A DNA stretch of 64,000 nt, from NCBI GenBank assembly GCA_951406725.2, contig OX597815.1, forward strand, positions 87,420,001-87,484,000, written 5' to 3'. This document shows, one piece after another, positions 3,064-43,198 of this stretch; the stretch's first letter is position 1; every line of letters starts with the position of its first letter. The position numbers and the translations under genes are program-made. Under the pieces are notes generated by a model that saw only the letters and a program-made list of their open reading frames with translations, was not told where the DNA came from and ran no database searches. The stretch is from Octopus vulgaris. Its lineage: Eukaryota.

Positions 3064-3108
3064 ACACAACGTTTTGGCTGATATACTCTCCAGCCTTCAT
3101 CAGGTGTC
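3064..3108 (-). ncRNA. Minimal type I hammerhead ribozyme motif (one core substitution)
   Basis: ACAC CTGATGA A GGCTG-loop-CAGCC aAAAC GTT GTGT; helix II is perfect, and GAAAC has become AAAAC. Confidence 0.7.
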
Positions 3109-3395
3109 TTGGGGAAATTTCGAACCTGGGTTCTCATTCCTAAGGTATTTTTCAATGTTATTATTACTATTATTATTCAGGTCACTGCCTGGAATCGAAC
3201 TTGGAATCTTGGGGTTAGTAGCCCACACTCTTAACCACTATGCCATGAGCATATGGCATAGTGGATAGTGGTTAAGAGCGTGGGTTACTAACCCCAAGAT
3301 TCAGAGTTCAATTCCAGGCAGTGATCTGAATAATAATAATAATAAAACATCAAAAAATACCTTTGGAATGAGAACCCAGTTTTGAAATTTCCCAA

Positions 3396-3440
3396 GACAC
3401 CTGATGAAGACAAGAGGGTATATCAGCCGAAACGTTGTGT
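3396..3440 (+). ncRNA. Minimal type I hammerhead ribozyme motif (helix II damaged)
   Basis: ACAC CTGATGA AGACAA..CAGCC GAAAC GTT GTGT; the core boxes are intact, with a palindromic AACGTT. Confidence 0.7.
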
Positions 3441-5745: not shown

Positions 5746-6064
5746 TAGTTGTGAAGTGTAAAGTCAGCCTTAGTAAGATTTGAACTCTGAATTTAATGAT
5801 GATAATGATTTCTAGTATTGGCCCAAGGCAACATACTTGGTTCCTGGAGAAGCATCACATATTCTGGTGCATATTTAGTTAAGTCTCATTACATTCTGAA
5901 TTTAAATCCATTGAAGACCTGCTTTGCCTTTTGTTTTTCAGTCCAGAGTATGTGATGCTTCTCCAGGAACCAAGTATGTTGCCTTGGCCCAATACTAGAA
6001 ATCATTATCATCATTAAATTCAAAGTTCAAATCTTACTAAGGCTGACTTTACACTTCACAACTA
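5746..6064. repeat. 122-bp inverted duplication with 75-bp spacer
   Basis: 5746-5867 is the reverse complement of 5943-6064, with 3 mismatches by eye. Confidence 0.95.
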
Positions 6065-7406: not shown

Positions 7407-7565
7407 CATCAAGCATGTCGGAGAAAACTTGACAGTAAATGTGAGGCATTGTTGATTTTAAGTCGGGAGATGGATCAGTGTCGCAGTGAGCGAGATCAGT
7501 TCAAGCTAATGGCTGAGCAGTTGCAGGAACGCTACCAGACTCTGAAACGGCAGCTAGCTGGCAAG
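7407..7565 (+). CDS. CCDC149: CCDC149 exon 2 (HQACRRKLDSKCEALLILSREMDQCRSERDQFKLMAEQLQERYQTLKRQLAGK)
   Basis: Polypyrimidine tract + tttag acceptor, AAG|gtaagt donor. Resembles vertebrate CCDC149 as recalled (CKRKLESKKEALLILSKELD...ERDQYKLMANQLRERHQ). Confidence 0.95.
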
Positions 7566-9700
7566 GTAAGTTCTAGTCTTCTGTTTCACCACTATAGTCA
7601 AGTTTGCATTGATAGAAACATAATCTTTCCTTCCCTTTCATACAAACCCCAGTTTACTCAATTACTAATAATCAAAGATGCAAACACACACTCATTCATT
7701 TATTCATACACCCATACCACTTTTAGAGTAGGACATTCTCATATCAGACAGGAGTGAACAAGATGAGTATTGTTGGTATGGAATTGAAAAGTTAGATCTA
7801 TATATAATGTAGGAGACACGCATTGGGGGAATGTGAGTTCCAAGGAACAGGAGTACTCAAAATGAAGGATTGGCATGATGTAACATTTGCTGTGATTCTT
7901 GAAAAAACAAAAAAGCATGAGGGAAGGGTTCAGTAGGTAGCGAGATCGTGTCAACAGCTCACATCAAGAAGTAGGTTGAAACAGGTATGTTCTGATAAGT
8001 AACAGCAGCAAAAGAAGCAGAGAGAGAATACATAATAAAGAGTCAAAGATTGAAGATTGTTTCAGTAAGAGTGACTCTATTGATTTTTTTTTTCTTTTAA
8101 TGTGATTTAGGATGCCACTAATTTAAAGTTTTGAGCCATTCTAAAAATGAGGAAAATATTCTATATAGATGGCCAAATGGATATGATACTGGGCTACCAA
8201 CTACCATGGTTCATGAGTTCAGATTCACTGTAGATGTTGGGTCTTTGAGTAAGGGTGCTTTAATTTCATATACTTCAGTTTACCTTACCATCAAGAATAA
8301 ATACAAGAACTTTGGGAAAAGATACCTGCAATAGACAGTCATTCTATCCAGGCAAAGATATGTCTCTCATCCAAATAATAGTGGGGTTGAGTGCAGATTA
8401 AGCAATTGTACAGTGAGCTCTTGAGGTTTGTGAAAGGATTAACTAACTGTATCTATACCTTGTAGACAGTTATGTATTTACTGTGTTGAAATATTTTTTG
8501 CATTAATGAGAAAACTAAATCTCTTTTTGAGGAAGTTTTAACATGTTGAATATGTGGGGATTTCTCTGAGAGTTTTTCATAAGAAATGAGCATGTTATAT
8601 GATTTATCTGCCTAAAAATAAATAATGTTTGAATTTTTACATCATTAGATATGACCTGATTCCTGGATTCCTGTTCAAGGATCTTCTTTGGTAGAAGAAG
8701 TAGATGTTTAGATAAAGCTGCTGCTAATACCAGTAAACATGGCATAAAAGATTTTAAGGTCATAGATAAAAAGTTCATGTTCAATCCTTGGAGATACAAA
8801 TATTTATGGGGCAGAAGATTGAGTGAGTACCTCTGATATAACGAAATATTGTTCAGCCATTGATACAGCTTTGAATACTGGTGAATAGTTCTGAGTATAA
8901 CCTATGAAAAAAGGAGTTTGATCAAGAGGTTTGCATACCACGTTTATCAAAGGATGTTCTAATCAGTATAAAAATCTTGGTTTCTATTTTTTTTTTCTAA
9001 CCTAGCAGTACTGTCTCAGATGTAAGTTTGGAAGACCAGATGGTCTGTTTCTTTTAGCTGAAGGGTATATGGTTATTTGATTTTAACCTTCATGTAAGAA
9101 TATGAGCTTATTTTTGAGTAAGGGGTCAAGATAACACCACCTAGACATGTGAATTTGGCAATTTTATAAAGATGGATGATTTGTTGGACTGAAGCAGCAG
9201 AAGAATGGGAAGAGATTTGTGTTAAAAGTAAAGTGGGATTTTAAATGGAAAGCAAAGCTCTTGCTTTTGGCTACAAGGATACTGTTACTATAACAGTCCA
9301 GGAAATTACTTAGAATTAGTCAAGAAAAAGATTTGAGCAATCAGGGAGAGAAAACAGTTTTTTTTTTTTGGAAAGGGCTGGAGAAACAGTATACCATGTG
9401 AAATTTTTCTTTTCATATTTTTGCCATTAATGTTTGCACCATTTTCCTCACACATCTGTATAAATCCACCTAAAACATTACAATTTTAATGCAGATTTGT
9501 TTTATATATCACACATTCACTCATAATCACGAACTTTTGCACATCTTCATAGATGCAAATGACTGCACAGACACAAATACTTCCATGCTGTGACTGCACA
9601 TATGCCAACACACCCTTCTACACTCCTTTGCATTCATCCACACCCACAGTCACTAAACCTTTTTTATTTTCTCTCCCTGTTTACGCTTATTTCTGTGTTC

Positions 9701-9736
9701 CTTTCTGTTGAAGAGCTTAGGCTTGAAACATAAAAG
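9701..9736 (+). ncRNA. Degenerate minimal hammerhead-like motif in a repeat ending at (CT)n
   Basis: CTTT CTGTTGA A GAGC-TTAG-GCTT GAAAC ATA AAAG. Helix I (CTTT/AAAG) and helix II are present; the core has substitutions. Confidence 0.55.
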
Positions 9737-9829
9737 ACTTTCTCACTTCCCGAGCATTAAACTAATACATCTGTTTGTTGTTTACACACTCATCTTCATC
9801 TTTTGTTTTTTTGTAAATTCTGTCTGTCT

Positions 9830-9836
9830 GTCTGTC

Positions 9837-9921
<85 letters not shown>

Positions 9922-9930
9922 ATCTATCTT
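9830..9930. repeat. (CTGT)n/(CT)n microsatellite
   Basis: Direct reading. Other long tracts include (CA)n 18365-18422, (GT)n 35686-35760, (TA)n/(GA)n 40876-40968 and (TA)n 43200-43276. Confidence 0.97.
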
Positions 9931-10055
9931 TCCCTTTTACGATCCCTTTTGATCGAAAACCTACCCCACTTTTTTTTTTTCTTCCCAAAAAAGAAAAGCT
10001 CTACTTTGTAATCTGTCCCGTCTGTGTGCAGCCCTGTGTGGCTAATTAAGAAACA

Positions 10056-10125
<70 letters not shown>

Positions 10126-10217
10126 AATATGATTTCAGTCAATTAGACAGGTACATATACAATGTTATTCATAGTTGTTGTGTGAGAAATATTATAAGCA
10201 TATATCTATTATTTCAG

Positions 10218-10277
10218 GGTTTTGGTGGCACCTCTTTCTACAGTGGAGATAGGCCTGACTGTAGAGCAGAAGGACAG
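10218..10277 (+). CDS. CCDC149: CCDC149 exon 3 (GFGGTSFYSGDRPDCRAEGQ)
   Basis: tttcag acceptor, CAG|gttagt donor, 60 nt, phase 0/0, open; occupies the variable linker position. Confidence 0.8.
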
Positions 10278-10911
10278 GTTAGTAAATTAGAATGTGTACT
10301 TATTTATGCTAAATGTTGAGTGACAGTACAGGTGGCATATCAGAGTGAACATAATTAAGTTGCTGGTTTCATTTTTACTGTCTGAATAATACTCCTGATG
10401 CTCTATCATGGTTGATAGATTGCAGATCTGTGATTTTCAAGATTATTATTTGTGTTTTCTTTTTGTTGTTTTTATCTTAGCCTATAGTCTGCCGTGATGG
10501 GATATGTCATGTTCAGAAAGATGAAATAATTTTGTGAAAGAGATTAGCATTATAAAAATGGAGTAGGGGTCCTCATAATGAAGTGCTATGTGTAACTTGT
10601 GGCATAATTAGTGTTTTAAGGAGAGAAATGGTATGGTTGATAAGAATTGGAAATTTGATTGCAACATGCAGGAGTGCAGCCAGCAATTTTTCTAGGTAAA
10701 TACTTTATTGTATGCATGTATACAAATATATTAAACATATACACACATACAGAGTTACTATGTGAAAGAGTCATGATGGCTATTTAAAAAATATATATGC
10801 TTTTACAATTAATTCTGTTTTATTTCTTGATAGTATTGTATATTATAAAGTGCTAAGAAGTATATTACACTATCAAGAAATAAAATAAAAGTAATTTAAC
10901 TGTATATGGAT

Positions 10912-11288
10912 AGGCACAGGTGTGACTGTGTGGTAAGAAGCTTACTTCCCAACTACATGGTTCCAAGTTCAGTCCCACTGTGTGGCACCTTGGGAAAGTG
11001 TCTTCTACTATAGCCTCAGGCTGACCAAAGCCTTGTGAGTGGATCTGGTAGATAGAAACTGAAAGAAGCTTCTCGTATATATGTGTGTGTGTGTCTGTGT
11101 TTGTTCCCCACTACCGCTTGACAGCTGATGTTGGTCTGTTTACATCTCTGTAACTTCGTGGTTTGGCAAAAGAGAACGATAAAATAAATATCAGACACTG
11201 GGATTGATTCATTCAATGAAAAATTCTTCAAGGTGGTGCCCCAGCATGGCCATAGTCTAATGACTGAAACAAGTGGAAGATAAAAGAC
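10912..11288 (+). mobile_element. tRNA-derived SINE (major family in this window)
   Basis: A/B-box-like head and conserved body (caccttgggaaagtgtcttctactatagcc...gaaactgaaagaagc). Related copies at ~18430-18570(-), 32070-32230, 35530-36135, 37510-37660(-), 39070-39220(-) and 45483-45615. Confidence 0.85.
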
Positions 11289-12014
11289 GTGTGTGTTTGT
11301 ATGTGTGCATGCATATATAAATAGTTAGACTCACATAGAGGGGTTGGACAAAATAATGGAAACACCTTAAAATTTCAAACAAATTTATTTTAATATGGGG
11401 TAGGACCACCTTTGACAGTAATTACAGTGTGAATTCTATGAGGTATGGACTTGTACAAAGTTTGAATTGTTTCCAAAGAAATTTTTGTTCATTCTTCAAC
11501 TAAAATGGTTTACAAAATTCAGTTGTAAAATAAGCTGTGCCAACCACTATTCTCTCAACCATACTATCAAGAAAGAAATGAATTTAGAATGGCCATTATT
11601 AAATTCCATATTTCCTTTGATTTGAATATTCATTATTGCTGTATGTACTTCCTCTTGAGAATATGCTTCCCTAAAAATTCAACCAGTTAATGTTGCAAAA
11701 AAAAACCCCACTAGTTCTTGTCTAGTCATCAAATTTTAATGATGTTAAATCTAATTTGGTACTTAAATGAGTCTAATTTTGAGAAACTAAGGCATTATAA
11801 ACATATTTTAATATAAACTGTTATTCTTATATGTTGTAACCTTTTTGCTTACATCTACAATTTATGAGTACTGCTAAAATTTCAGATTAATAAATGAATA
11901 AATAATGTTTGGGGAAAGGGATAGTATACAGTTGATGAACGTCATTTGTGAATGCTTCTAGGTGTCTTTATGGCTCTATTGATATTTTAATTTAGCACTT
12001 TTTCCTACTTCTAG

Positions 12015-12119
12015 AATATTCACAAGTTGCTCTCTGATTCTCGGGATCATAGCAAATCATTACAATTTGAAGTGGATGATATGAAACAGAAACTTTCTGA
12101 TGCTCAGGGAGATATCAAG
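12015..12119 (+). CDS. CCDC149: CCDC149 exon 4 (NIHKLLSDSRDHSKSLQFEVDDMKQKLSDAQGDIK)
   Basis: ttctag acceptor, AAG|gtattt donor; resembles NLAQLLRDSQD...QRLGEVQGDNK. Confidence 0.92.
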
Positions 12120-12711
12120 GTATTTTTTCAGCTTTTTTTTATATTCATTTTTAAAAACTCTTTGAGAAATTATTGGGACACTATCTCAGTGTAAACAAAG
12201 TTAAAAAATTTATTGGTCATAAAAATAATCAATGTTGGTTTAACTTCGTATGAATCTCAATTTGTCAGAGAAACTTTCTTAAACATATTATGCACTTCTA
12301 ACTCAATTATCTGACACAATTATCTCAGTTATCTGACACATGCATACATAGATACATATACATCATCATCATCATCAAATGTCTGTTTTCCATGCTAGCA
12401 TGGGTTGTCAGTTTGGCAAACTGGAGAGCTGCACCAAGTTTTAATCTGATTTAGCTTAATTTCAATGGCTGGATGCCCTTCCTTACACCAACTACATTAC
12501 AGTGTTTGTGGGCTACTTTTAATGTGGCACCAGCACACAACTCTTACAGGCAAATCCTCTTCACCAGGAGGAGTGACCTTAACACTTCTACTGTGATCTC
12601 CTTGAGTACAGAATGAGTCTTCTTGAGTACAGGATGGGTTTTCTTGATATATATATATATCATTTAGCATCTATTGTCCATGCTGGCATGGATTGGACAG
12701 TTTGACTGGAA

Positions 12712-13058
12712 CTGGTAAGCTGATGGGGCTGCACCAGACTCCAGTCTGATTTGACATGGCATCTATGTCTGGATGCCCTTCCTAACACTTACCACTCCGA
12801 GATTGTAATGGGTGCTTTTATGTGCCACTGGCTTGACACCAATATCTGCCCCAACTATGATTTCACTTGATTTAATAGGTCTCCAGTCTGGTAAGCTGAT
12901 GGGGCTGCACCAGACTCCAGTCTGATTTGATATGGCATCTATGTCTGGATGCCCTTCCTAACACTTACCACTCCGAGATTGTAATGGGTGCTTTTATGTG
13001 CCACTGGCTTGACACCAATATCTGCCCCAACTATGATTTCACTTGATTTAATAGGTCT
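12712..13058 (+). repeat. 176-bp-period tandem duplication within a LINE 3' tail remnant
   Basis: 12712-12882 is repeated almost identically at 12888-13058. Confidence 0.92.
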
Positions 13059-13714
13059 ACCTTCTCAAGCACAGCATATTGCCAAAGGTTTCGGTTATTT
13101 GTCATTACCTCCATGAGACCCAGCACCTCAGAAGGTGTGTTTATGTGCCACTGGCACAAGTTTTAGTTACATGACACCAGCATTGGCCAAATTGCCTCCG
13201 TGAGGCCCAATGCTCGAAAGGTCTGTTTTATGTGCCACCAGCATGGGTGCCAGTTACATGACACAGACAACGGCCACAATTATGATTTCTCTTGGCTTCA
13301 CAGGTCTTCTCAAGCATGGCATATCGTCAAAGGTCTTGGTCACTAGTCATTGCCTCCATGAGGCAGTGTTTGAAGATCATACTTCACCATCTCGTCCCAT
13401 GCCTTCCTGGATCTCCCTCTTCCACAACTTCCTTCCACTGGTAGAGATTGGCACTTCTTCACACAGCTGTCCACATCTATATGCATCACATGACCATACC
13501 AATGCAGTCATTTCTCTTACACACCACATCTAATGCCTTTTATGCCCAACTTTTCTCTCAAGACATTTACACTCTGTCATACATGCTTTAAACAGTTTGT
13601 AACTTCACTAAGAATTGAAAACAGCAATGTATAACTTTTTTTCCTGACTGATTACTTATTGTGACAAAAAATTGCCATTAGTAATATTGTTACCTGATAT
13701 TTGTCTTCAAATAG

Positions 13715-13846
<132 letters not shown>

Positions 13847-14933
13847 TAATCTTTTTGTAGAAATGTTTCTGAGTATTTCTTTCATATCATGCCTTGTTCT
13901 ATGCCAGCATTACAAAAAATAGGCATCAAACCAATGAGAATGAAAATGATGGTAATAACATTTGATGTTAATAGTTGTTTGTGTATAACAAACATGAGAT
14001 ACAGCATAAAAACTACACAGGTTCGATCTCTGCCAGGAATTGTAAGTAGTTATAGTAAAAATATTGATTTTTAGGAGCATGAGATAAGCAGAACTGGTAA
14101 AGCACCAGATTAAATATTTCATCAATATTTAGATTTGTCCTTTTACTCTGATCACTACAAGCTTACAAGCATTATGGCTCTTGTAGATTACATTAAAAAT
14201 TCAGCAGTTCATTTCTAAAATCAATTAAGAGCTGCATCTGACTGAAGAAACAACCTTGACAGAAATGACTTTCACATAAACATTGTGTAAAGACTAGCTG
14301 TTTATATTGAATCAGTTGAAAATAGTGTCTGAAGCACAATGGTTAATGAGGTTACAGTCTTGAACACTTGCTCTAATTGTCATGAGTCTAAACATTATTA
14401 CCAATTGTTGTATTGTATTCTTTGAACAAAATAAAATGATTCAAATTCATTATCAGCTACATTAATATGGAAAATGTTTTAAAAATAGTTAAAGAAAACA
14501 TATGAATTCAGTCTCCATATATGTAGAAATGTATCTATTTGTGACAACTAATTGTCTATGACTGTGTAGATGTTTGTGTGGTTGATCAGGTAAACTATGA
14601 CACACAGAATAAAGTTCCTTGTCCAGAGATACAAGCAGTCATCAGTAATAATATCTAAGTAGTCATAAGGAAGTAATAACAACACTGAGGGATTAATAAA
14701 TGTGTTGTTGGCTTGCAATGCTGAGTTCAATTTACAGGAAGAACTACCTATCACAGACTATCATTCTGTTACCAAGGAGGTCTTTCTCTCTCATATCCAC
14801 TAAATGGTACAGTATCAGTTATTCAGTACCAGCTTAAATAACTCCTGTAATTCAGAAAGAATCAATCAGTTATAGTCGATTTATCTTCAATTTCTTTCTT
14901 GCTATTGTATCCCTTTACTTTATATGATTCTAG

Positions 14934-15106
14934 TATCTACAGCTGGAGCGAGACCTGCAACATGTACTGGATGAGAAAGAAGAACAAGAGACTGAAAGAG
15001 ATGCTTACAAAACGAAGTATGAACGCTTAAACCAGGAGCTGAACTATATACTGAAAGGAGATGAGAGACGAATTCTTGATATCGATGCCATGGTCATGGA
15101 GAATCG
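14934..15106 (+). CDS. CCDC149: CCDC149 exon 6 (YLQLERDLQHVLDEKEEQETERDAYKTKYERLNQELNYILKGDERRILDIDAMVMENR)
   Basis: ttctag acceptor, CG|gtatgt donor (phase 2); conserved ERLNQELN.IL...RI.D.DA..MENR. Confidence 0.95.
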
Positions 15107-15344
15107 GTATGTTCCTCTAAAACAGTTTATTGGTTCTTGGAATGCATTGTTTTTATTTATTTATTTATTTATTATATTATCAAATTTGGATATATATGTA
15201 TATAATTATATCAATTCATCATCATTATTGAACGTCTGTTGTCCATGCTGGCAAGCTGGGGGGCTGCACCAGTCTCTAGTTTGATTTGGCATGGTTTCTA
15301 TGACTAGATGCTCTTCCTAATGCCAACCACTTTACAGATCTTGC

Positions 15345-15668
15345 TGGATGCTTTTGCAAGACACTGTACAGGTGCTTTTACATGGTTCCATATGGGCACT
15401 TGTATGTGGCATTACACGGGCACTTTTTTTATGACACCACACACACTTTTACATGGCACCACATGGGTGCTTTTATGTAGCACTGTGTGGGCACTTTTAC
15501 ATGACACTGCACAAGCACTTTTACATGACTCTACACAGGTGCTTTTACATGCCACATAACACACACTTTTATGTGACACCACACAGGTGCATTTACATGT
15601 TGCCACATGTGTGCTTTACTGTAGCACCACACAGGTGCTTTTACTTGGCACTGTCATGAGTGCTTTAC
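15345..15668. repeat. Degenerate ~20-bp minisatellite (GGTGCTTTTACATGGCACCAC-like) within a LINE 3' tail remnant
   Basis: About 15 diverged units following the family motif ggatgcccttcctaatgccaaccact. Confidence 0.85.
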
Positions 15669-18362
15669 ACTATCAGAAGGGTTGGTCTTAACACTTCTGC
15701 TGTAGAGTACGAGTCTTCTTGAGTACAGCCTGGCATCAACTAGGTATTTCAGCCCTTTGTCATCTCACCTGAAAAAATGCATGCACACATTAGATCTCAC
15801 AGATAAGATGATGCAGAATCAAGATGTAGGGTTTCTTGGGTTATACTGCAGACCCAAGCCTGGAAATTAAATATTAAATTTATGTTGATGAGTATTTGTA
15901 TACACACTAGTGAGCTGGACCTTTTTTCATTGTTTTTTTTTTTTATAAGGGGCTGATTGTTAGCACCTTTTCTAAAATAAGAACCAGTTGTTAATTTTTT
16001 GGTACATGCTGGATAAAGATTTTCTTTGGAAAGTTAGAATGTCAATCATGCCACTGACTAATGATTCCACCCACCCACATAATGGAAATAGAGTTGGCTA
16101 TTTTGTGTTTTGAAGTGAAAGTTAATCATTGCATATAATTTTCCTTTGATCCAACATCTTTACACCAGTGTTAATGGTGGCAGCCCTGATGTTTTGTACC
16201 TGACAGGAAAAGGAGAATTTCTCATGATGGCATGGGTTGTAGCTGAGTGTCTATTTTCTGCATCAGTGAAGGGGTTCATGTGATTGTTTGATGGCTGTGG
16301 GATTCTCGCACAAGTCTAAATGGCTCCATCTGGCCTCTTCTATGCACATCACTGACATGGTAGCTTAGTCCTACATACACAATCAGTGCTTTTCATTATA
16401 TTTGTGACTGTCATAATTTTGATGTGGCTTTATTGGCTGAATGCTCTTCTTGTTAGCAATCACTCGACATTTTATTATGCTACAAGTACTAAAGAAGTTG
16501 TCTATCAGGACTAAAGTGTCTTTCTACTCTCTGTCCATTTTCATTTAGCTATTGCTTTTCTAGATGATGTGTGGTCCTCATCTGTGGAGACTTTCATTCA
16601 GAGTTAGATACTGCCAAAGTTGTTCACAGTGCATGCAAACAGTGTAGAAACTGGTAAAGAGATAGAAATATGGAGTGAAGGAGACAGAGAGATATAAGAA
16701 GAGCAAAATAGCGATAGAGATATACTGCTAACTAGACATGTTTGGCAAATAGGATGCTACAGTGAACAGGTATTGTTTCACCAATAGACCTCAGCAAGTG
16801 GGAAAATGGGACATGTGAGAGAGACAGGGAGAGAAAGAAAGAGAGAGAGAGAGAGAGAGACCAGCATATGAGGAGAGTGTTATGAGAAAAAAAAGGGATA
16901 TATCTATACTGAAAGAGGGAGAAAGAGATGAAGCAGGTAGAAAGAATCTTAAGGAGGTAGTCTTAAAATGAAACTGTTGCTGAGGCATTGGGTGAATTAT
17001 CAAGAGACTATATTCTGACATGGACACTGGTGATTGTTCATATCACTTAAAAGCTCTTGTGGTCTCTCTTCTAACTATTTTGCATGTAATCTGATTGATT
17101 AGTTAAAGTAATTCATAAATAAATCACAAAATGAATACTAATAATATAGTAGCTCCATCAAATCTAGCCGTCGTAAATGAAATATGGAAAGCCGTTGATT
17201 TATTGATAATCATACTAGTAAATAGCATTAAGAAAGAAAACATCTGTTCATGAACTCTCATCTTAACATCTTGTATATATTCTGAATGATCAGTTATAAT
17301 AATTTATTGATAAACAAATACTTAAACAGCAAAATGAATAATAATTAGTTTCATATAATCTGTATGTATAAAATTGTATAAAATATATACTAACTAGTAC
17401 CAAAACATTTAAAGTGATCATCTACAAACGTTTGTGTATAAGGCCAAATGTGGTAGACACAGCCACTTATAAATGGAAATCCAAAGATAATGCCTGGCTG
17501 CACACGCACACATAGCCCCCTCCCACACACACATTCCCTCCTTCCCCTCGCTTTCTCTCTCACTCATGCATGCAATCAAATTCATTGCTAATTTTTATTC
17601 ATTGCTTCAAATCTAATTTTAAATTTCAAATTTCTTTAGAGATTATTGTGGCATGAAATTCAGAATCATAACTAAAAACATTTATATAGGATAGGCTACA
17701 TATGGTTACCTACAAAATAGGCTAACAAACAACACATTAAAATTGTGCTTTTCCTTTGCACATTTAGTAATTACTGATTGTATTGGTGTATCAGTGGTTG
17801 GATATAGCACCGGCTTCACAACCTTAACCGATTGAGCAAGCAGCATAATTAGAAAGGAAATTTGCACCTAAAAAGTCATATGCATAGTGCTTGGACTCTA
17901 TTCTATAGGTGCCTCTACTTCATACTATTCTAATTAATCCTGTTATATGTGAACAATGTTCCCATTAGTTTTCAGAAGCCATTGTGCAAAACAAATTCTA
18001 TATTCTGCAGGGTTTTTTTCTTTTTTTTAAAGCAAAAGTAAGAGTACACTAAATACATATATAATCACCATTGTTTTAACGTACATATTTGCATGGGTCA
18101 AACGGAATTTATTGAGGTGAATATTCTCTGGTTGGATGCCCTTCCTGTTGCCAACCTTCACCTGTTTCTGAGTAAGATGATATTTCCCTGTAATCAGACA
18201 TGTTTTCACTGGATATTGGAAATGAATGACACACTGGTATGACAGCACTTGTTTGCAACTATCATGCAATGTCAAGACAAGGAGTCAGTAACATACATGC
18301 ACTCACACATGCATACATACATTCATATATACATACATACACGCATGAATACACACACGCAT

Positions 18363-18424
<62 letters not shown>

Positions 18425-18779
18425 CAACTAACTTCTTTCAGTTTCTGTCTACCAAATCTACTCACAAGACTTTGGTCAACCTGAGGTTATAGTAGAAGAC
18501 ACTTACCCAAGGTACTACTCAGAGAAAGTGAACCAGGAACCATGTGGCTGGAAGCCACACCTGCATCTAATATTTAATACATATATAATAAATATAATTA
18601 TGAATTTCTTCACTATTTCAAGTAACTAATCTTTTATGTAATGATTGCAAGATATGTATGCATGATCTCAAGCACAACTTAGAAGGAACAGTACTTTTGA
18701 AATCCTGGTTTTCAGTCACTTTACCAGAGATCCCACTGCATATTTTGTGTGCTCATTACTTGCACTGTGTACTCAAATT

Positions 18780-19960
18780 TCTACCAACTTCCTGCCTCTA
18801 TACTTCACCAAGACTTTCCAAATTATAACATGAAGCTATAGCTTGGAAAGTCTGTTACTAAGTTTCTATTACTACCTAACTGTTTAATATTTACCGTTGT
18901 AATTTTTAGGTCTTTGTACTCAAAATCATGCTTCTATGTTTTAAATAGGTTCTGCTATGGACCTATCATGAGTATATAAAAGACCCTAAGGATAACTAGT
19001 CCTGAACTCTTGTATTGTATACTTCAGAACTGTAATGCATAGAAGTAAAACTGAGGATAGGACCCTGGTGAACACCTCTCTGTATACTTAATTTCTCATT
19101 GAATTCACTGCTGATTGTTACCTGACATACATGGCTCTCACAAGTTGTTCATCTGTATTAGTTTCTTTAATACACACAAGACTACATTAAAGATTTTCTC
19201 CAAATCAAAAACTGCAAAATTGAGAGGTTTGTTCTTAGTCTAGATCTTCTCTTTGTAATTGACTCACAAAAATATAACTTTTCTTATTAACTCAAACTGA
19301 TTGTGGTACAAACTAATTGTTTGCATCAAGTGAGCCTCTTTGCATTTGCTTAACTCATTAGAAATGGCAGCCAGATCTAATTAAATCTAGTAACAAATGC
19401 TATCAACTACTTTTGGTGAGCCATCTAGGTATGTAAGAGAATCTAGTTCTAGTGTGTTCATAGTATACATTGCTCCAGTGCATTTGTCTCATATGAAGCT
19501 TACTTTCTCTGTTAGTCTGCCTACAATTCCATCTCTGTTAGTCTGCCTACAATTCCATAGCTTACATTGAGTACAGTTTATGGAGTTAATACCTACTCCT
19601 CTTTTTTTTTTAATCAAGCAAGGCCATGTCTTTGAAAGTACCTGAATCCTATCTTTCTTTCATACTAAAATCTTTGTCTTTACTAAGTTTACCTTGAGGC
19701 CTCTCAATTGTAGCTTTAGCTTCTATGTCTGGAATTACCACTCTAATTCCTTTATAGATTCAGCTATGAGAACTAAATTATTAGCATATAGGAATTCTCA
19801 TAGATAGCCAGCTTTAAAATTTATTGTGTAGGATTATGATGAATAAAAAACCAAGGACTGAGCCTTGATGAACTCCTACTTTCATGCTGAAATTGTCACT
19901 GAAATTGTTGACACTCACTTTACATACTACATCTTTGTACATAGCTTGTACTGGTCCCAT
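18780..19960 (-). pseudogene. Highly decayed RTE-LINE RT fragments
   Basis: Remnants of GVHQGS and YANNL(V) motifs on the minus strand, similar to the 30374-31195 copy. Confidence 0.6.
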
Positions 19961-20604
19961 GTATAATACTTTTAGATAGACAATATTAAATACTATATAT
20001 ATGCAATATATCCACCTTCCTACCTACCTATGTAAAAAGCATCCACTACCCTCTCGGAGTGATTGGCATTAGGAAGGGCATCCAGCTTTAGAAACCTTGC
20101 CAGATCAGATTGGAACCTGCTGCAGCCTTCTGGCTTGCCAGTCCTCAGTCAAACCGTCCAACCCATGGAAAGCGGACGTTAAACATTAATGATGATTCTT
20201 AACCTTATCCTCAGCACATATATTTGCAGTTGTTAAATCTTTACTATACTTCAATCAGTTTTCATCTCTAATCAATTATTTATTCCTGGAAGCATTTGCA
20301 ATTCAAGGATGAATTTTAATCCAGTTCAGCTCTAGTTAAAATCCTACCTTGGATAATGTAAACATCCAGGGGTAAGATATCTGATAATCAAAATGTTGTG
20401 AAGGTGTAATAAATACAAATATACATTCTGAGGATAAAGTTAATACTCTGAAAAATAATTTTGATTTAATATAAGTGCTTACATTGATTTTTACTCTACT
20501 AGCTCTTTACACATATCTAAATTATATAGTTGAATAATTACATTAGAAGTGCTTACAGGGAGTTCTAATGACATGGAATTTCATTTATCTGTTGTATGTT
20601 GTAG

Positions 20605-20677
20605 GTATTTACAAGAAAGACTCAAACAAATGGAGGAGGAAAAAACAATGGCAATGGCAACCGCTTCCAAGTATAAG
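20605..20677 (+). CDS. CCDC149: CCDC149 exon 7 (YLQERLKQMEEEKTMAMATASKYK)
   Basis: gtag acceptor phase 2, AAG|gtatta donor; conserved YLQERLKQ...KYK. Confidence 0.95.
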
Positions 20678-20893
20678 GTATTAATTCATCTGTTTATTTA
20701 TCTTTTTATTTTATCCATTTATTTCCTACCATCTTCAGCTCTGATGTTATCATGGTGTCCACATTGTTGCCTCTTTAAAATATATTACTGCAAAGTCTTT
20801 TGTATTCTCTGACTGTACATATCTGTTAATGTGGTACAATATTTAACTGACACTATTTAATCTACATGGTGTTTTTTTAATATATATTTTCAG

Positions 20894-20978
20894 AATATTC
20901 TAGAAAGAAAGAAAAGTAAAGGAGGTTTAAAGTTTGGTCAAAATCGAAATGACAGCTTGGTCATTAGCCAGAAGCAAG
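20894..20978 (+). CDS. CCDC149: CCDC149 exon 8 (NILERKKSKGGLKFGQNRNDSLVISQKQ)
   Basis: tttcag acceptor, G|gttggt donor phase 1; resembles NALERRKNSKG...VLSAKQ. Confidence 0.92.
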
Positions 20979-21652
20979 GTTGGTATGAAAATAAAATCTT
21001 TCTTGTTACCTCATTATTTTAATGAGTTAATACTTTTTTGCATTTCAAATTTGATGAAAACTCTCTTATATCTTCAAAATAAGATAGTTAAATTTCTTCT
21101 ATTCATCTTTTAAATTGCTATTTTTGCATGCTAGAAATTTTTATCCATTGTGTGTGTGTGTGTTTTCACATAATTTGTCAGTCATTTAGCACTGTTAAAC
21201 ATTACTAGAATTAGGCTATACTGTTTGTATCAAGTGTCTAACAAAATATCTCAGAAGCAAGTGAGAATAGACTGAATAGTACAATTAGATAACAGATTTA
21301 ATTTTAGAGAGTGAGAAACTACACAAGTACACTGTAGCATAATTGGAAATGCAATTGCCTATCAAGAACCTGGATTCAAGTCCTTTCAGTTTATTTTATT
21401 TTATTTTTTTAATACCAAATTAATATCCATAATATTTAACATGGTTTAATCTGTTTAACTTTCTCTTTCTTGCCTATATTTGGGCACACTTCCCACACAC
21501 AATATACACCAAAAATCAGTGTTTTTTCACAACTCAAATTTTGTGCCGTGTTTTTATTACTTTCTAATAAATGTGATATTTCATGCCATGTCTAAGAAAT
21601 TGCTAATTTCATGTAAAAAGAAATTTGACCATGAATTTGTCTTTCTACATAG

Positions 21653-21791
21653 TCCACCATTTGATTGAAGATAAGAAATATACAGTTCCAAGTGTCCAGG
21701 CAATGGCAGATCTTCGGGGCTTAGCTGTTGCTCTCTTAGAAACTATCAATGACAAAAATCTAGCTTTATCTCATCAGCGGAAAACAAACAA
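21653..21791 (+). CDS. CCDC149: CCDC149 exon 9 (VHHLIEDKKYTVPSVQAMADLRGLAVALLETINDKNLALSHQRKTNK)
   Basis: catag acceptor phase 1, AA|gtaaga donor phase 2; conserved DL..LA.ALLETI..KN....HQR.TNK. Confidence 0.95.
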
Positions 21792-23291
21792 GTAAGATTT
21801 AGTTTACATTTTCCTCTTCTTCAATAGACTTCATTCTTTGATACTGCAACTAATTCAACCTCCAAAAGATGACCCAGTGTATAATATATTGAGCTACCTA
21901 ATCATAGGCCAAAGATTTAAACATGTTAATAATGTTTTGTTTTGTTTATAGACAGAACATTTTTATTCTGCATATTTACTTACCATGTATATCATGGTTT
22001 TAGAATAGGTACATAGTCACCCTATGTTTTATAAGAGGTAACTAAAAGAGTTAGTGACAGGAAAGGTATCTGTCCATAAAACACTGCCTCAGAAAAACCA
22101 TCCAACTCACACTAATATGGAAAACCAGACATGTTGTTGAGGATGGTTGTCTCGATTCACTTGGTTATCACTAATAAGTACCAGTAATAAGAACCTGAGA
22201 ATATTTAACCTCTTATCAGATCCCATCAAACATCTAGGCTAACTTTGCAAATAGATCTAAACTCAGGTTATAATTATATATTGTATATACTAATTGGTAT
22301 GTAACCATCAATTTCATTGAAACTGATCTCTCACAAGTATCTGTCATTAAGTGGATAGTTTCTTTGGCTTATTAGGATGTCTCACTTATGAAACCTTATC
22401 CTTTCCAAATCACAAGGATCTCTTGAGTCTGTAGTTCAACTTCGGTTTCTCTAACATTAAGCAAATGAGAGAGAAATCAACCTCTAGATAGAATGTTATC
22501 ACAAGTACTTTTCTTGCTGAAATTGATATTTGATTATGATGAATTACTACCTCCTAGTAATATCTTCTTAGAGCTAAGTACTTTGACCATTGATATAAAG
22601 CAGTACTGAGGACAGGACGTGAAGTGAATCATTAACTTGGTGTCTGGTGTACTTTACATTGTTCTGCCATCATTCTTTAATAAGGAAAGTAAAAACATTT
22701 TTTCAATGTGAGTAGTATGGAAAAAAAAAAAAAAATCATGAAGCTTCAGATCTGGATAAATAGCTCCCAGGTTTATTTGTTAATCTGACCACTGTCTGTA
22801 TTAACTGAGTGTTGAACTGCCAACTAATGAGTCATTGGTTCATATCTCATGACTGATACTTTTCTCTGTTTGTGACAAGATCCTGACCTCTCACTTGGTA
22901 TAATCCACCAAATTATAAATTTATTCCACAAGCAGAACTATTAAGTCCTGTATACATCAGGAATACTGTATAACTGATAACTAACTTACTCTTGATACAC
23001 AACATAAAAACAAGGTCTCTAAGATATTTACTTATGATATGGTGTGTTATGGGACTTATGCATATATATATATATATATATATATATACAAATTAGTAAA
23101 TAAATGGCACAACTAAGTACCGATATTTACTGGAAATAGCGAACGTAAAAATACGACGCTAAAGTGTAGCTTCACCGCGTATGTATTAGTAAAAATGCGT
23201 GTGTGCAACAAAATAGAGAAAAAAAAAAAAAAAAAAAACGTCTTACCTCCAGGGAGAACATCTGAAAGATGAAACACCCGGAAAATGGATA

Positions 23292-23368
23292 ATGTGGTAC
23301 CTGCAGGTTTCAGGATTTGCAAGATATGTCTCTCACCCATATTTGCTTTACCTTCTTCAGCCAAACAT
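23292..23368 (-). ncRNA. Type I hammerhead ribozyme, intact core (copy 1)
   Basis: ATGtttGG CTGAAGA AGG..GCAA.ATATG-loop-CATAT.TTGC..CCT GAAAC CTGCAG GTA^CCACAT; helix III is the palindrome ACCTGCAGGT; predicted cut between 23298 and 23297. Confidence 0.85.
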
Positions 23369-23728
23369 ATACCAAGACGAAACTACGATGTTACCACATA
23401 AATACTAACACACTCGACTGAAATACTAACAGTACGAGAAACGGTAAAGAAGTTTCAAAATATCAGTAATGCAATACAAAGTATTGCCTTCCAGTAAAAA
23501 GTAGCCCGTGAGGGAAAAATACACAAATTAGTAAATAAATGGCACAACTAAGTACCGATATTTACTGGAAATTGCGAACGTAAAAATACGACACTAAAGT
23601 GTAGCTTCACCGCGTATGTATTAGTAAAAATGCGTGTGTGCAACAAAATAGAGAAAAAAAAAAAAAAAAAAAAACCGTCTTACCTCCAGGGAGAACATCT
23701 GAAAGATGAAACACCCGGAAAATGGATA

Positions 23729-23805
23729 ATGTGGTACCTGCAGGTTTCAGGTTTTGCAAGATATGTCTCTCACCCATATTTGCTTTACTTTCTTCAGCCA
23801 AACAT
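23729..23805 (-). ncRNA. Type I hammerhead ribozyme, intact core (copy 2)
   Basis: Same as copy 1 with one mismatch at the base of helix II; predicted cut between 23735 and 23734. Confidence 0.82.
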
Positions 23806-24920
23806 ATACCAAACATATATATATATATATATATATATCAAGCCAACTATTAACCAAACTTAATGTTACTTATACATCTTAAATGATAATCTGTGTTTAT
23901 AATATGATCTAATCATAAATATTATCACAACCCAAGATGATATGTTAGATAGTTTCAAGCTCATAACTCTCAAGTATGGTAATGCATTTGTCCTGAGTAG
24001 CATTATAAAACCTGCACAAATTTCTACTCTTCCCTAAGACTTCACCCTACTGAAGTCTAACACTGACTTCAGGGAAATGAAGGAAACTTAAGATAACCTT
24101 ATGAGCATTTTATCTTATAGTATTTCAATTGATATTACTGTTAAATACTAGTAATTACTGGTTTTATTTTAATCTTTATTATTCTGGGATCAAATTCTGT
24201 TGTAGTCAACTTTGCCTTTCACCTTTTAGGGTTAATAAAATAGCACTACTCAAGTATTAGTGTCAAAATTATCAGCTACAGCCTTTTCCTGTCTGCCCTT
24301 GTCTTTATGGTAAACATCATTATTATTAAAGTTAATGTTATAATAGAAATGGTAAAATACTAGATTAAATATCTAACAGCATTTTGCTTTGTCCTTCTAC
24401 ATTCTCAATTTAAATCAGACTGCAGTTGTTTTTGTTTTCACTGTTCCAACCCACTTCCCCAAATTTGTGAGAAATATTTATTATCAAGGTAGTAGATGGC
24501 AGAAATGGTAGGGCAGCAGATAAAATGATTTGCTGTATTTAGTTATATCCTGTTTATGGTCTGTGTTCAAATATAATTTTTCATTTCAACCCTCAATGAT
24601 TGATTAAAATAAAGTACCATTTAAATATTGGCATCAGTCTAATCAACTATATACCCCCCCCCAAAAAAAAAACAACAAAAAATATGTAGTATTAGAAAAT
24701 AATATTTTTAAGGGTGGTATGTCAACAAAAATGGACATTTGCTAAATTAAATAATGTACAGTATTAGTTTCATGTTTTTATATCTTGAGTTCAAATCCTT
24801 ATAAGATCCACTCTGATTTTTGTTCTTGCAAGACTATTAAATTAGTTCCACCTATATACTTGGATCAATTCATTTGATTATATCTGTCCACAAATTTATG
24901 TTACATTGTGTAAGAGATGA

Positions 24921-25202
<282 letters not shown>

Positions 25203-29398: not shown

Positions 29399-31195
29399 CA
29401 TCATCATCATCATCATCATCATTTAGCGTCCGTTCTCCATGCTAGCATGGGTTGGACGGTTCAACTGGGGTCTGTGAAGCTGGAAGGCTTCATCAGGCCC
29501 AGTCAGATCTGGCAGTGTTTCTACGGCTGGATGCCCTTCCTAACGCCAACCACTCCGTGAGTGTAGTGGGTGATTTTTACGTGCCACCCGCACAGGTGCC
29601 AGACAGAGCTGGCAAACGGCCACGAACGGATGGTGCTTTTACGTGTCACTGGCACGGGGCCAGGCGAGGCTGGCAATGGACACAAACGGATGGTGCTTTT
29701 ACGTGCCACCAACACGGGGGCCAGACAGAGCTGGCAAACGGCCACGAAACGGATGGTGCTTTTACGTGTCACCGGCACGGGGGCCAGGCGAGGCTGGCAA
29801 CGGACATGAACGGATGGTGCTTTTACATGTCACCGACATGGGGGCCAGACAGGGCTGGCAAACGGCCACGAACGGATGGTGTTTTTACGTGTCACCGGCA
29901 CGGGGGCCAGACAGAGCTGGCAAACGGCCACAAACGGATGGTGCTTTTCCGTGTCACCGGCACGGGGGCCAGGCCAAGCTGGCAACGAACACAAATGGAT
30001 GGTGCTTTTACATGCCACCGACACGGGGGCCAGACAGGGCTGGCAGACGGCTACGAACGGATGGTGCTTTTACGTGTCACCTGCACGGGGGCCCTGATGT
30101 TGATCGACCTCAATTTGGTTTGATTTTGATTTTGACTGTTCTCACTGGTCTTGCCGGGTTTTCTCACGCACAGCATACTTCCAAAGGTCTCGGTCACTGG
30201 TCATTTCCTTGGTGAGACCTAAAGTTCACTCAACTATCTTCAGCCATTCTCATCACATGACCATACCAGCGCATACGTCTCTCTTGCACACAACAACTGA
30301 TGCTTCTTAGGTTCAACTTTTCTCTCAAGGTACTTACACTCTGTCGATTATGAACACTGACGTTACACATCCATCAGAGCATACTAGCTTCATTTCTTGC
30401 GAGCTTACGCAAATCCTCAGCAGTCACAGCCCAAGTTTCACTACCATGTAGCATGGCTGTACGTACACATGCATCATACAGTCTGCCTTTTACTTTGAGC
30501 GAGAGGCCTTTTGTCACCAGCAGGGGTAAGAGCTCTCTAAACTTTGCCCAGGCTATTCTTACTCTAGCAGTTATACTTTCAGCGCACCCGCCCCCGCTAC
30601 TGACTTGGTCACCTAGGTAACGGAAACTATCAACTACTTCTAGCTTTTCTCCCTGGAAAGTGACGGAAGTTGGTCTCAGAGCATTTTCAGTGTTAATTGT
30701 TCCTGAGCATCTGCCACATACAAAAACCATCTTCCTAGTTAGCCTTCCTTTGACATTGCTGCACCTCTTATGTGTCCATAGCTTACACTTGGTGCATCTT
30801 ATAGAGTTTCTACCTACACCTTTTCTACAGATCGAGCAGGGCCATCTACCTGAAGGCGTTTGTGATTGGTCTACCTTCCTACTTATTAGGACTTTGGTTT
30901 TGGCTAGGTTGATTCTAAGGCCCTTCGATTCTAAACCTTGTTTCCATACCTGAAACTTCTCCTCTAGTTCTGATAGAGACTCAGCAATTAGAGCAAGGTC
31001 ATCAGCATAGAGGAGCTCCCAGGGGCATCCTGTCTTGAATTCCTCCGTTATTGCCTGGAGGACTATGATAAATAGGAGGGGACTGAGGACTGAACCTTGG
31101 TGGACCCCAACCTCTACCCTGAATTCTTCACTGTACTCGGTGCCAACCCTCACCTTACTAGCAGCGTCTCTGTACATGGCTTGTACAGCTTTCAC
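29399..31195 (-). mobile_element. Relatively young 5'-truncated RTE-clade LINE: RT C-terminal half, 3' UTR with tandem array, (ATG)n tail
   Basis: 273-aa ORF with GVHQGSVLSPLLF, LLYADDL, a C/H-rich finger-like insert, FRYLG and GSETW; the frame continues past a TGA to RWYGHV; (CAT)n tail at 29399-29422. Confidence 0.95.
29569..30092. repeat. ~61-bp GC-rich tandem array, ~8.5 units, in the LINE 3' UTR
   Basis: Unit ggtgcttttacgtgtcaccggcacgggggccagacagagctggcaaacggccacgaacggat; two subtypes. Confidence 0.95.
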
Positions 31196-36483: not shown

Positions 36484-37779
36484 CACACGCTGACATAGAA
36501 CCAACGTTGAACCCTTTATTCGCAATATTACCGAATCTGGAATTTAACTATGGTCTGTCTATAGCACTTATTCAGCATTACCTGACACGTTTGGGTCTCA
36601 ATGACACCATTATCTCTTATAACCTCAACTTCTCTGTATATCTATATATAAATATGGTATACACACATGTACGAGCATGCACACACACACAAACTATAGG
36701 CATTGGATCACTTAATAACAAGCCTTATTAGTTTGATGAATAAACTGTTTGTTGTTTCAGAATTATTTATGCTTGGTTGGACATCCAGCTCAACAACATT
36801 TCACTTGTCTGCATCATTTCTACTCAGTAGACCACACCTCTTGGTACTTCCTTTCTGAGCTTGCATTGCCTGCCTCTTCTGTCTATGAAGAGAAAGGAAC
36901 TTATGTTCCTTCTTGGAACCTTCCAACAATGTGATTTTAATACTAAACCTACCATTTTTTGAACACTTTTTTTCATATATACATGCACCATACTTAAGAA
37001 AACACACATGACCACACTAAGATATCACAATTTGACAAATGCACACACACACACATACACACACACACACACACCTACTATTGCCACATAAACAAACATG
37101 CAGATCTAATATTAACACAAGCATGTACATACACATACCTGTCTGCATGCACAAAAAAACATTACATGCATGCTTCTAAAAACTCATACTAATACATGAA
37201 CTCAACATTCTCACATTTACTAAAGATAGAAAGAAAATAAGCTTACCAAAAGCACATACACACCCTCATACATACCTGCCAAGAAAATAGCTGTATGGCT
37301 ATTGGGTCAGACAGAGTTTATAGAAGCAGATATTCTAAGGCCAAATGCTCTTCCTGTCATCAACTCTTACCTATTTCCAAGCAAGGTGATATTTCTCCAT
37401 GGCCAGACATTTTCACAGAAATTTGGAAAGGAATGATATTTATTTACAACAGCCATGCACTGTCAGGACAAAGAGATGCAAACATTCTCTCTCTCACATA
37501 TATATGGTGAGCTTCAGTTTCCATGTACCAAATCTATTCATGAGGCTTTGGTTGGCCCAGGGCTATAGTAGAAGACAGTTGTCCAAAGTGCCAAACAGTG
37601 GGACTGAACTGGAAACCATGTGGTTGGGAAGCTAACTTTTTAACTACACAACTACACCTGTATTTTGTATATATTTGTAGTGTTTAATTATGTTCTCCAG
37701 CATGCTGTTTTTGATCTAAGAGATATTACCATTTCTGTCAATGTTTCTTTAACTTACACCATTACATTTGTTCTTCCAG

Positions 37780-38109
37780 GTCCCCATCCAGTCCTTGCAA
37801 AGATCCGGTCAGAATATGAGGAAGTGAAATCCTTGTTACCGGATGTCTCTTCACCAGAAAACAAATCTGAGCCTGATGGCACTATATACGATAAAGACAC
37901 TGAAGAAGATACTGAAACACTGGAGACTTTGAGTACTCCTGCATCCACTGTAGATAACAGCCCTTCCCATAGCAATCAACAAACTCCATATAAAGTTGTC
38001 TCACTCACAGACCTAGATTTACTTCCAACTAAAGAAATTCTAAATCAGCAATCCTTAGAAAAAAGTGATGGAGAAATTTCAGCAAACAGTTTGGACCTAA
38101 AATTTTTCG
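37780..38109 (+). CDS. CCDC149: CCDC149 acidic S/T-rich exon (GPHPVLAKIRSEYEEVKSLL...ANSLDLKFF)
   Basis: ttcttccag acceptor phase 1, 330 nt open, G|gtaagc donor phase 1; compatible with the flanking exons. Confidence 0.85.
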
Positions 38110-39397
38110 GTAAGCTATGAGAAAGTTTTATTTCCCTCTTGTTTTATTTCTTGCAGAGTCTCTTTTATGAATAGAGATGTGATGAACTACAAGCTCATTA
38201 GTTACACTTCAAAATTTCTGTTCCTGGGTAAAACATTATATCCTGTATTTATCCTATATTGTTTGTAATAAATGCTAGATCATCTTCAAATAGCTTTCTG
38301 TGGTTGACTAACAACCTATCTAAAGATGAGGTGCTAGGGAACCCTGTAAGACAAGACCCCAGTAAACTCAATGAGGCACTGTTTTTCTGTGGAGTTGTGT
38401 CTCATTGACTTCACTAGCGTTTAGCCCCTACTCCTGAAATGTTTCTCTAATGTCTAGAAGATAGATAAATATCTTCTTTGCTTTTATAAAGTGTCTTGTT
38501 TTGGGTTTTCTTTTTATTATTTTTTTTACATATTTTACTCCATGTATTAGATCTTAAAGGCAGTTTTTTTGTCTTTTTTAGTGGACTGTATCATGCCTTA
38601 TGACATTGTTATAATTTATTGAATAAGAAAATAGCAAAATGTTTAAGGACATCATTCTGAATATTTATGGTTTAAATTCTTTCTGGATTTAAGATCAAAC
38701 TCTGCTACAGCTGACATAAACTCCCTTCTTTTTTTTTTACCTAATTGATGATGATAAATTAAGTATGTGTATAGAAAAAGAATCACACCCATTTTTAACT
38801 TTAGAAATACACTTTTAAAGCAAAAGCTTTTGATTTTCCTACTATCAAAACCTTCTGAGCAATATTTGATTTTATGCCTGAAGCATTGATACTAAGTATA
38901 AGCAAAATAGAGTCCAGTAGAAGTAGAAAATTAATTTAGTCACTATTTTGCTATTTTTAATTGAAAATATTGTATACATTTCTTTTCCATGACTTCCATG
39001 AAGTGTTAAAACAAAGAAACACAAATGCGCACACATTTATATCCATATACACATTTATTAGTACAACTAACTTTTTCAGTTTCCATCTACCAAATCTGCT
39101 TTGGTTGGCCCAGGGCTATAGGAGAAGGCACCTGTCTAAAGTGCCATGCAGTGGAACTGAACCCAAAACCAAGTGGTTAGGAAGCAAACTTCTTAATCAT
39201 AAGAGCTATGCCTGCACCTATATATATATAAATATATATATATATAATATAAATTAGAGATAAAACCACTATTATGCAACTCAAACAATGATAGACATAA
39301 ACCAAAACATAAATAACAAATAAAAAATATTTTTATGAAACAAATAACTAGATCACAAAAAATATAAAAATGAATAATCAATATATAATAAGTAAAA

Positions 39398-42485: not shown

Positions 42486-43198
42486 TATATACGAAAGAAG
42501 GTTTGAAAATGCAATTTAAAAGATGTTTATTTACTTTACCGGTTTCACTCTTTGGAAAAAGATTGTCAAAAGTAACATGTAGAAGTTTGGTTGCGTTAAT
42601 TATTGGTTGTTGCAAATTGCTACATTACATATATACAGTCTTTGGTAACAGGGGCATGTTAAAAATATAAAAAAGTTCAACAAGTTCCTTAAAATATTGG
42701 GCACAAAAGATTACTACATAAATAATCATTCTCAAGGACATGCTTAAGATAGTTTCCAGAAGGAATTGATATTGGTATTGTATCTGTATATTCAAACATG
42801 CACAGAATATTGGTTGACACAGAGTACTATAATCCATATAAATATACATTCTTTGGTGACAAGATTATATTGAGAATATAAAAAAGTTTAACAAGCTCAT
42901 TGAAATAATGGGCACAAAAGATTACAACAAATATATTATACATCTCAAGATAATTTCCAGGAGGAATTATTAAAAAAGTTCAGTATACACGTACAGAATA
43001 TTATGAGTTCAAAAAGATTTACATTATAATAGTGGTGAAGCTAAAACTGACCTGTCCGGACTATTATAATGTAAATCTTTAATGTAAATAATTAACGCAA
43101 CCAAACTTCTACATGTTACTTTTGACAATCTTTTTCCAAAGAGTGAAACCGGTAAAGTAAATAAACATCTTTTAAATTGCATTTTCAAACCTTCTTTC

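Follow-up and report, generated by a model that had tools for sequence, protein, structure and literature searches.

Metazoan non-LTR retrozymes are described as tandem non-coding units of 150-450 bp with low GC content (<50%) and a type I hammerhead, whose monomer is predicted to be self-paired and which Penelope-like elements (PLEs) are proposed to mobilise (Cervera & de la Pena 2020, PMC7229834; Li, Clavereau & Pollet 2026, 10.64898/2026.07.22.740005). The Penelope element of Drosophila virilis encodes a reverse transcriptase (RT) plus GIY-YIG and harbors, in its terminal repeat (pLTR), a short intron near an internal TATA-less promoter with a DPE and next to a hammerhead; it occurs as partial tandems and the intron is kept in genomic copies (Schostak et al. 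2008, PMC2377424; Cervera & de la Pena 2014, PMC4209133). Located in the promoter region, this 75-bp intron begins 46 nt past the start site and extends to hammerhead helix I; both spliced and unspliced RNA were found (PMC2377424, PMC4209133). Intron plus hammerhead in a pLTR, with both RNA forms, is a combination already known for this element.

Other PLEs share part of these traits. According to Craig et al. 2021 (PMC8557442), Chlamys-3_cRei has a pLTR intron that overlaps an internal promoter, non-autonomous Chlamys such as MRC1 form head-to-tail pLTR insertions, and Naiad, with Octopus families included, prefers (TA)n; Naiad and most Chlamys are without canonical hammerheads, unlike the element described here. 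The Poseidon element of Anolis carolinensis, PAc, has an AT-rich target, and its reverse transcription begins shortly downstream of the hammerhead, a start that determines where genomic copies have their 3' end (Frangieh et al. 2024, PMC11167929). PAc is autonomous, with an ORF that starts in the hammerhead, and the cited part of that report describes no intron. According to Craig et al. 2021 (PMC8557442), it is unknown how and why introns of PLEs survive passage through an RNA intermediate, and the choice between an antisense and an unspliced sense template was left open by Arkhipova et al. 2013 (PMC3846280). In the literature searched, with most subscription papers and Repbase outside the search, neither an intron within an animal retrozyme nor structural masking was found described.

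Here we describe a 437-nt repeat unit in a 64,000-nt stretch of the Octopus vulgaris genome (GCA_951406725.2, contig OX597815.1, positions 87,420,001 to 87,484,000, forward strand), to which all coordinates refer and which we call the window. The following features are discussed:

21792-24994, plus strand: intron of the host gene CCDC149, which holds the element in antisense (Pfam CC149 on both exons; GT and AG read).
23062-23088, no strand: (TA)n tract at the 3' end of the element; the family 3' end lies beside (TA)n in 25 contigs of sequencing run X15.
23089-23814, minus strand: whole insertion, 1.66 head-to-tail copies of the 437-nt non-coding unit, 97-98% identical at a spacing of 437.
23815-23837, no strand: (TA)n tract at the 5' junction.
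23722-23812, minus strand: type I hammerhead motif of copy A, with the core CUGAAGA at 23797, GAAA at 23748, a palindromic helix III and a GUA cut predicted after 23735.
23285-23375, minus strand: type I hammerhead motif of copy B, with the core at 23360, GAAA at 23311 and a cut predicted after 23298.
23594-23683, minus strand: putative U2-type intron, copy A, 90 nt, between the two hammerheads; unspliced in X1 record 6 and X4 record 21.
23159-23246, minus strand: putative U2-type intron, copy B, 88 nt, from a motif scan (donor 23246, branch 23191-23185, acceptor 23159).
23089-23158, minus strand: 70-nt 3' segment past the acceptor, which ends at the common 3' end of the family; probable start of reverse transcription.
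23373-23449, minus strand: candidate masking arm, located upstream of hammerhead B, for which pairing with the donor, branch point and 3' part of the intron is predicted (pair probabilities 0.72-0.99).
23675-23709, minus strand: Inr/DPE-like promoter candidate, copy A (+1 = 23707).
23238-23272, minus strand: Inr/DPE-like promoter candidate, copy B (TCA, +1 = 23270; DPE-like AGACGT at +28 to +33, inside the intron).

The unit has a GC content of 36%, and both this and its size fall within the range of the non-LTR retrozymes. It differs from those described in having donor, branch and acceptor motifs and a TA-microsatellite target; the cited portions of the two retrozyme reports mention no intron in the unit. 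Its two copies are the only ones in the window (blastn, nhmmer), and together they form a partial tandem with a 5'-truncated upstream copy and a fixed 3' end, which is a Penelope-like trait. At the 5' junction an 11-nt duplication (23819-23809 and 23808-23798, minus strand) begins with letters that match the (TA)n target; it has the appearance of microhomology-primed slippage as reverse transcription came to its end. The longest open frames of the element encode 76-103 amino acids, with no Pfam match and no homologues, and since it contains no ORF, in particular none for RT plus GIY-YIG, the element is not an autonomous PLE; in this it differs from D. virilis Penelope (PMC2377424, PMC4209133). 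By its sequence the unit qualifies as a non-LTR retrozyme, with cleavage and circles as predicted properties.

Very probably the element is non-LTR retrozyme-like and likely a non-autonomous derivative of the terminal repeat of a PLE. The preliminary description had linked it to a Penelope pLTR, and the PLE-type hammerhead, the partial tandem in (TA)n and the common 3' end agree with this; the label 'pLTR' itself we infer, because no RT/GIY-YIG partner was found. Protein searches for such an autonomous partner or for a spliced product came back empty, a weak result because the queries are short. None of eight short motifs of the unit occurs in one supplementary file of Craig et al. 2021 (PMC8557442), which may not contain nucleotide consensus sequences. 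An RT does occur elsewhere in the window, at 30374-31195 (minus strand), where a LINE-type fragment with a PHD-like finger (RVT_1, E 5e-15) was read as not Penelope-like. In copy B an 89-codon open frame (23113-23382, minus strand) runs from the hammerhead, with its ATG in helix II, through the intron; it has no homologue, and the frame in copy A differs. Frames of 26 and 41 codons that splicing would create were rejected as lacking support. DNA pattern scans for the element gave no match in viral contigs, four in metagenomes and two in prokaryote genomes; all six extend over just 19-24 nt and are therefore regarded as chance matches.

The host gene was recognized from the Pfam CC149 profile: the left exon matches its positions 268-300 (E 2e-12), and the right exon matches positions 300-316 (E 0.007). 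CCDC149 extends across 7407-25070 of the window (plus strand), with CC149-matching exons near 7419, 14940, 20603, 21694 and 24995, and two open frames further on, 37644-38120 and 47036-47497, may represent additional exons.

In each hammerhead motif helix I comprises 3 bp, helix II is extended and helix III is formed by a 10-nt palindrome. A motif scan of the window found these two sites only, one per unit. By eye they fit the PLE-type consensus CUGANGAH with short helix I and palindromic helix III (PMC4209133 supplement). Rfam gave no hammerhead match at gathering level, and chance matches only at E<=10. Loose ends of contigs show that relatives carry hammerheads with a CUGAUGA core and with GUC at the cut site; both are valid hammerhead letters. 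The missing Rfam match, a cleavage predicted from the motif alone, and the lack of cleavage in 8 of the 9 Xenopus retrozymes assayed (10.64898/2026.07.22.740005) would suit a satellite-like repeat that spread at the DNA level and in which ribozyme and intron are dead relics. We regard this as highly improbable: the family has a common 3' end at (TA)n and a pattern of 5' truncation, and the hammerhead variants change a free core position or give another valid cut triplet. A faint match to the helix II-III region at 8323-8376 (minus strand; nhmmer E 6.6) may be due to chance.

The putative intron follows the hammerhead, an order that is the reverse of that in D. virilis Penelope (PMC4209133), and it is known here from motifs, not from spliced RNA as in Penelope. 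On the minus (ribozyme) strand, on which copy A is the upstream copy, copy B has the donor GAG/GTAAGA (intron +1 at 23246), the branch motif TACTAAT and an acceptor, ...CTACACTTTAG, that ends at 23159. A GT donor, branch point and AG acceptor in this order make up the layout of a U2-type intron. Position, motifs and the 88-nt length of this intron, and the presence of its 90-nt second copy with the same motifs, had been put forward in the preliminary description and were borne out by the scan, as was a donor about 50 nt downstream of the cut site (51 nt past the predicted GUA cut at 23298). The donor matches U1 at 7 of 9 positions and ranks within the top 119 of 7122 GT sites. The exact splice pattern, which was fitted post hoc, occurs in 0 of 3000 dinucleotide shuffles of the unit (one strand) and in the window at the two copies only. 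A family-level motif (RG/GTRAG..CTRAY..YAG) was found in 18 of 3000 shuffles and at nine sites in the window; for a loose motif the corresponding numbers were 542 of 3000 and 105.

That the family-level motif exceeds chance is an observation in favor of an intron. The context of the acceptor is weak. There is no pyrimidine tract between branch and AG, the last 20 nt before the AG being 50% pyrimidine; the U tract stands directly behind the donor and not ahead of the AG, and an AAG occurs about 16 nt past the branch A. The own acceptor of the host CCDC149 intron is pyrimidine-rich, unlike that of the element. A second TACTAAT is present at the 3' end of the element (23533-23527 and 23098-23092, minus strand) and varies in relatives.

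The weak acceptor and the frequency of the loose motif point to a possible, though less probable, alternative: an ordinary non-LTR retrozyme whose intron is never spliced. Its letters would then be set by the RNA rod fold and a promoter box (both described below), and the splice-like look would be partly chance, sharpened by a TACTAAT and a long U run that are private to this copy. The low number of shuffles with the family-level motif argues against this, and so do the length and position of the intron (+25 from an Inr-like site and about 70 nt from the 3' end), which resemble those of the Penelope pLTR intron (PMC2377424). Further evidence on both sides comes from other copies of the family.

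Parts of the element were present in 20 of 24 indexed sequencing runs; 14 of these 20 were guessed to be RNA and none is recorded as RNA. The unit was compared with the contigs of four of the 24 runs, namely X1, X2 and X4, which are guessed RNA runs (16, 5 and 1 contigs), and X15, which is probably DNA (617 contigs, of which about 76% was read). The head-to-tail joint is found in all four, at a spacing of 437 in X1, X4 and X15 and of 430 plus 8 inserted letters in X2. In 25 X15 contigs the element ends at a common 3' end at (TA)n, with the loose end at 23530; it thus belongs to a multi-copy family with a common 3' end. Summed contig depth in X15 peaks at 23541-23570, the equivalent of the 3' segment, and falls from 555,000 at 23556-70 to 9,000-37,000 over the hammerhead. 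These values are qualitative only, and such a gradient would be expected if copying proceeds from a fixed 3' end and the copies are truncated at their 5' side. One record of X2 (record 17) continues beyond 23522 for 75 letters that are unlike the spacer and are not (TA)n; they could represent flanking DNA, belong to another subfamily, or come from the body of an autonomous partner.

Within the family the branch reads TGCTAAT in 82,498 of 84,521 depth (25 X15 contigs) and also in the single covering contig of X1 and of X4, and position -5 of the acceptor is A in 116,342 of 116,568 depth. Intron-spanning contigs show 13 and 17 unexplained gap letters; the U tract of the family is probably 13-17 shorter than that of this copy. 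The canonical look of the intron claimed in the preliminary description is therefore in part private to this copy. These differences favor the never-spliced alternative, as does a related subfamily (14 contigs, agreement 0.89) that has the common 3' end but diverges at 23571: no AG was seen at the homologous acceptor place in 30 letters read by eye. Against it, CTAAT and AG have no listed variant at >=2%, while the neighboring positions 23625, 23598 and 23593 vary among family contigs; 12 of 437 sites vary at all, and donor positions +2 to +6 fall outside this comparison.

The preliminary description also predicted a spliced RNA of about 347 nt besides the unspliced one of 437 nt, and proposed a check for junction reads. 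The contigs support the unspliced form of about 430 nt: in the guessed-RNA runs X1 (record 6) and X4 (record 21) the intron is carried along, with more than 31 letters on either side of the acceptor and 22-23 exon letters at the donor. Splice joints were absent from the contigs of all four runs (three guessed RNA, one probably DNA), a comparison that excludes 23641-23682 and in which contigs drop rare forms, and no intronless joint occurs among the 617 X15 contigs. The spliced form of about 347 nt is thus unproven. This outcome agrees with an intron that is never spliced, although contigs cannot reveal rare forms. X4 record 21 is self-closing (457 letters, about 427 plus overlap) and fits a circle or a genomic tandem alike. 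A coverage hole in X2 at 23586-23675 was dropped as a sign of splicing; no contig joins across it, and contigs reach the first G of the intron.

Folding predictions suggest a second role for the intron, a point absent from the preliminary description: it would form one strand of the main RNA rod of the unit. The cut-to-cut monomer, folded as a circle, gave z -3.56 (0 of 80 shuffles), and five flank controls gave -0.7 to +0.6. In this fold about 80 nt ahead of the hammerhead are the predicted partner of the intron, a pairing that would bury donor and branch point and favor a hammerhead dimer. The donor helix (23682-75 with 23380-73), the branch-point helix (23626-17 with 23412-03) and the helix of the intron 3' part (23613-05 with 23449-41) are the three strongest of the rod (p 0.88-0.97; donor and branch-point helices 0.95-0.97). 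The arm:intron duplex reaches -38.5 kcal/mol (z -4.66, 0 of 1000 shuffles) with arm limits that were set after the fold was seen; the lowest duplex among 60 random same-distance pairs was -2.9. Seven other tiles of the window, several at CA/TG microsatellites, reach about -46 to -48 kcal/mol with the intron and thereby surpass the arm. With the arm, the predicted unpaired probability of the branch decreases from 0.88-0.92 to 0.01, and that of the donor, which is already partly paired, from 0.26-0.40 to 0.12-0.15.

Both family substitutions in high-probability rod helices keep the pair, through one-sided changes only, and no two-sided compensatory change was found among the family variants examined. 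All five variants in weak central helices (p<0.5) break pairs, and five more are unpaired. The variable U run is unpaired as well, and a 7-nt family insertion falls in a loop. In a free fold of the whole insertion the two palindromes (helices III) pair with p 0.85-0.90; intron A, the one inside the released monomer, is masked (0.9) and intron B is not (0.1). The dimer-constrained fold lies 11.8 kcal/mol below the monomer-constrained fold; the free minimum lies 7.2 kcal/mol below the catalytic dimer and 19.0 kcal/mol below the two-monomer form, and in the free ensemble p is <=0.02 for the pairs of helix I.

Whether such pairing bears on the survival of the intron is a separate matter, and that masking by the arm is the reason for retention is a tentative proposal. 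Masking may be a by-product of general folding, because a unit from which the intron is removed still folds well and because self-pairing is general among retrozyme circles (PMC7229834). Nor can arm masking explain retention in PLEs in general, because they also keep introns in captured host genes (PMC3846280). The same observation, for which no masking arm is expected, together with the antisense template proposed there and a z of -2.9 that remains for the unit without intron, supports the idea of a passenger intron. This intron would be real and spliced in an autonomous Penelope-like parent, it would be retained by a general Penelope mechanism via an unspliced nuclear or antisense template, and the pairing would serve dimer and circle folding only. 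We consider it rather improbable, as the strongest helices lie on donor and branch point, and as the common 3' end and the depth gradient fit copying of the hammerhead-sense strand.

A speculative element of the unit is an internal promoter. In the Inr-DPE rule RGWYV(T) stands at +28 to +32(33) from the A+1 of the Inr, with strict spacing (PMC5580651, PMC1538597). The candidate Inr TCATCT matches TCAKTY at 5 of 6 positions, and a DPE-like AGACGT or AGACGG lies at the required spacing. Both boxes accompany 2 of the 56 GGTRAG sites in the window, which are the two copies described here, a coincidence found post hoc. Two letters of the DPE come free with the donor, and the fact that the AGACG of the donor doubles as DPE match suits the view that the intron is never spliced. 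The candidate DPE corresponds to intron nt 4-8, a placement that differs from Penelope; as it lies inside the intron, splicing would delete it from any retrocopy, and an intronless retrocopy would hence lose its promoter.

Overall, a real inherited spliceosomal intron in a Penelope-derived repeat, mostly retained through the predicted pairing, explains the data best, and we give this reading about even chances; that the intron is spliced somewhere in the family or in the autonomous parent is somewhat more probable. Starting from the 1.66 tandem units in (TA)n and the multi-copy family with its common 3' end, the cycle could run as follows. Read-through or tandem transcripts would fold such that the palindromic helices III pair, giving a hammerhead dimer, and that the intervening intron closes up with the arm. 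The dimer would then cut both GUA sites and release a monomer or circle of about 430 nt, which would stay unspliced because donor and branch point are buried. An RT/GIY-YIG protein of a PLE, acting in trans, may nick (TA)n and start reverse transcription about 70 nt downstream of the acceptor, comparable to the start of PAc downstream of its hammerhead (PMC11167929), and copying of more than one unit would yield 5'-truncated partial tandems that keep the intron. More speculatively, in RNA started at the internal Inr (23707/23270) the branch point would stay free until synthesis reaches the arm, about 260 nt further on, and a minor spliced form might therefore arise. The most elaborate version, a retrozyme with a built-in splicing switch in which the rod masks the intron in the ribozyme-released template, promoter-started RNA can splice and a spliced retrocopy is promoter-dead, we regard as unlikely.

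With ribozyme, intron, candidate promoter and masking arm in 437 nt, the unit is a minimal substrate for testing a structural answer to the retention of PLE introns. If autonomous PLEs use the same arm, this would explain how pLTR introns survive reverse transcription; if splicing never occurs, the element is an ordinary retrozyme.

The window contains further repeats. A 62-bp tandem array of 8.4 copies (29575-30093) lies at the end of a SINE-like dispersed repeat. At 42486-42604 and 43087-43205 two perfect inverted repeats of 119 nt, 482 nt apart and beside (TA)n, have a MITE-like appearance, and further long inverted pairs are present at 5746-6064 and 3015-3489.
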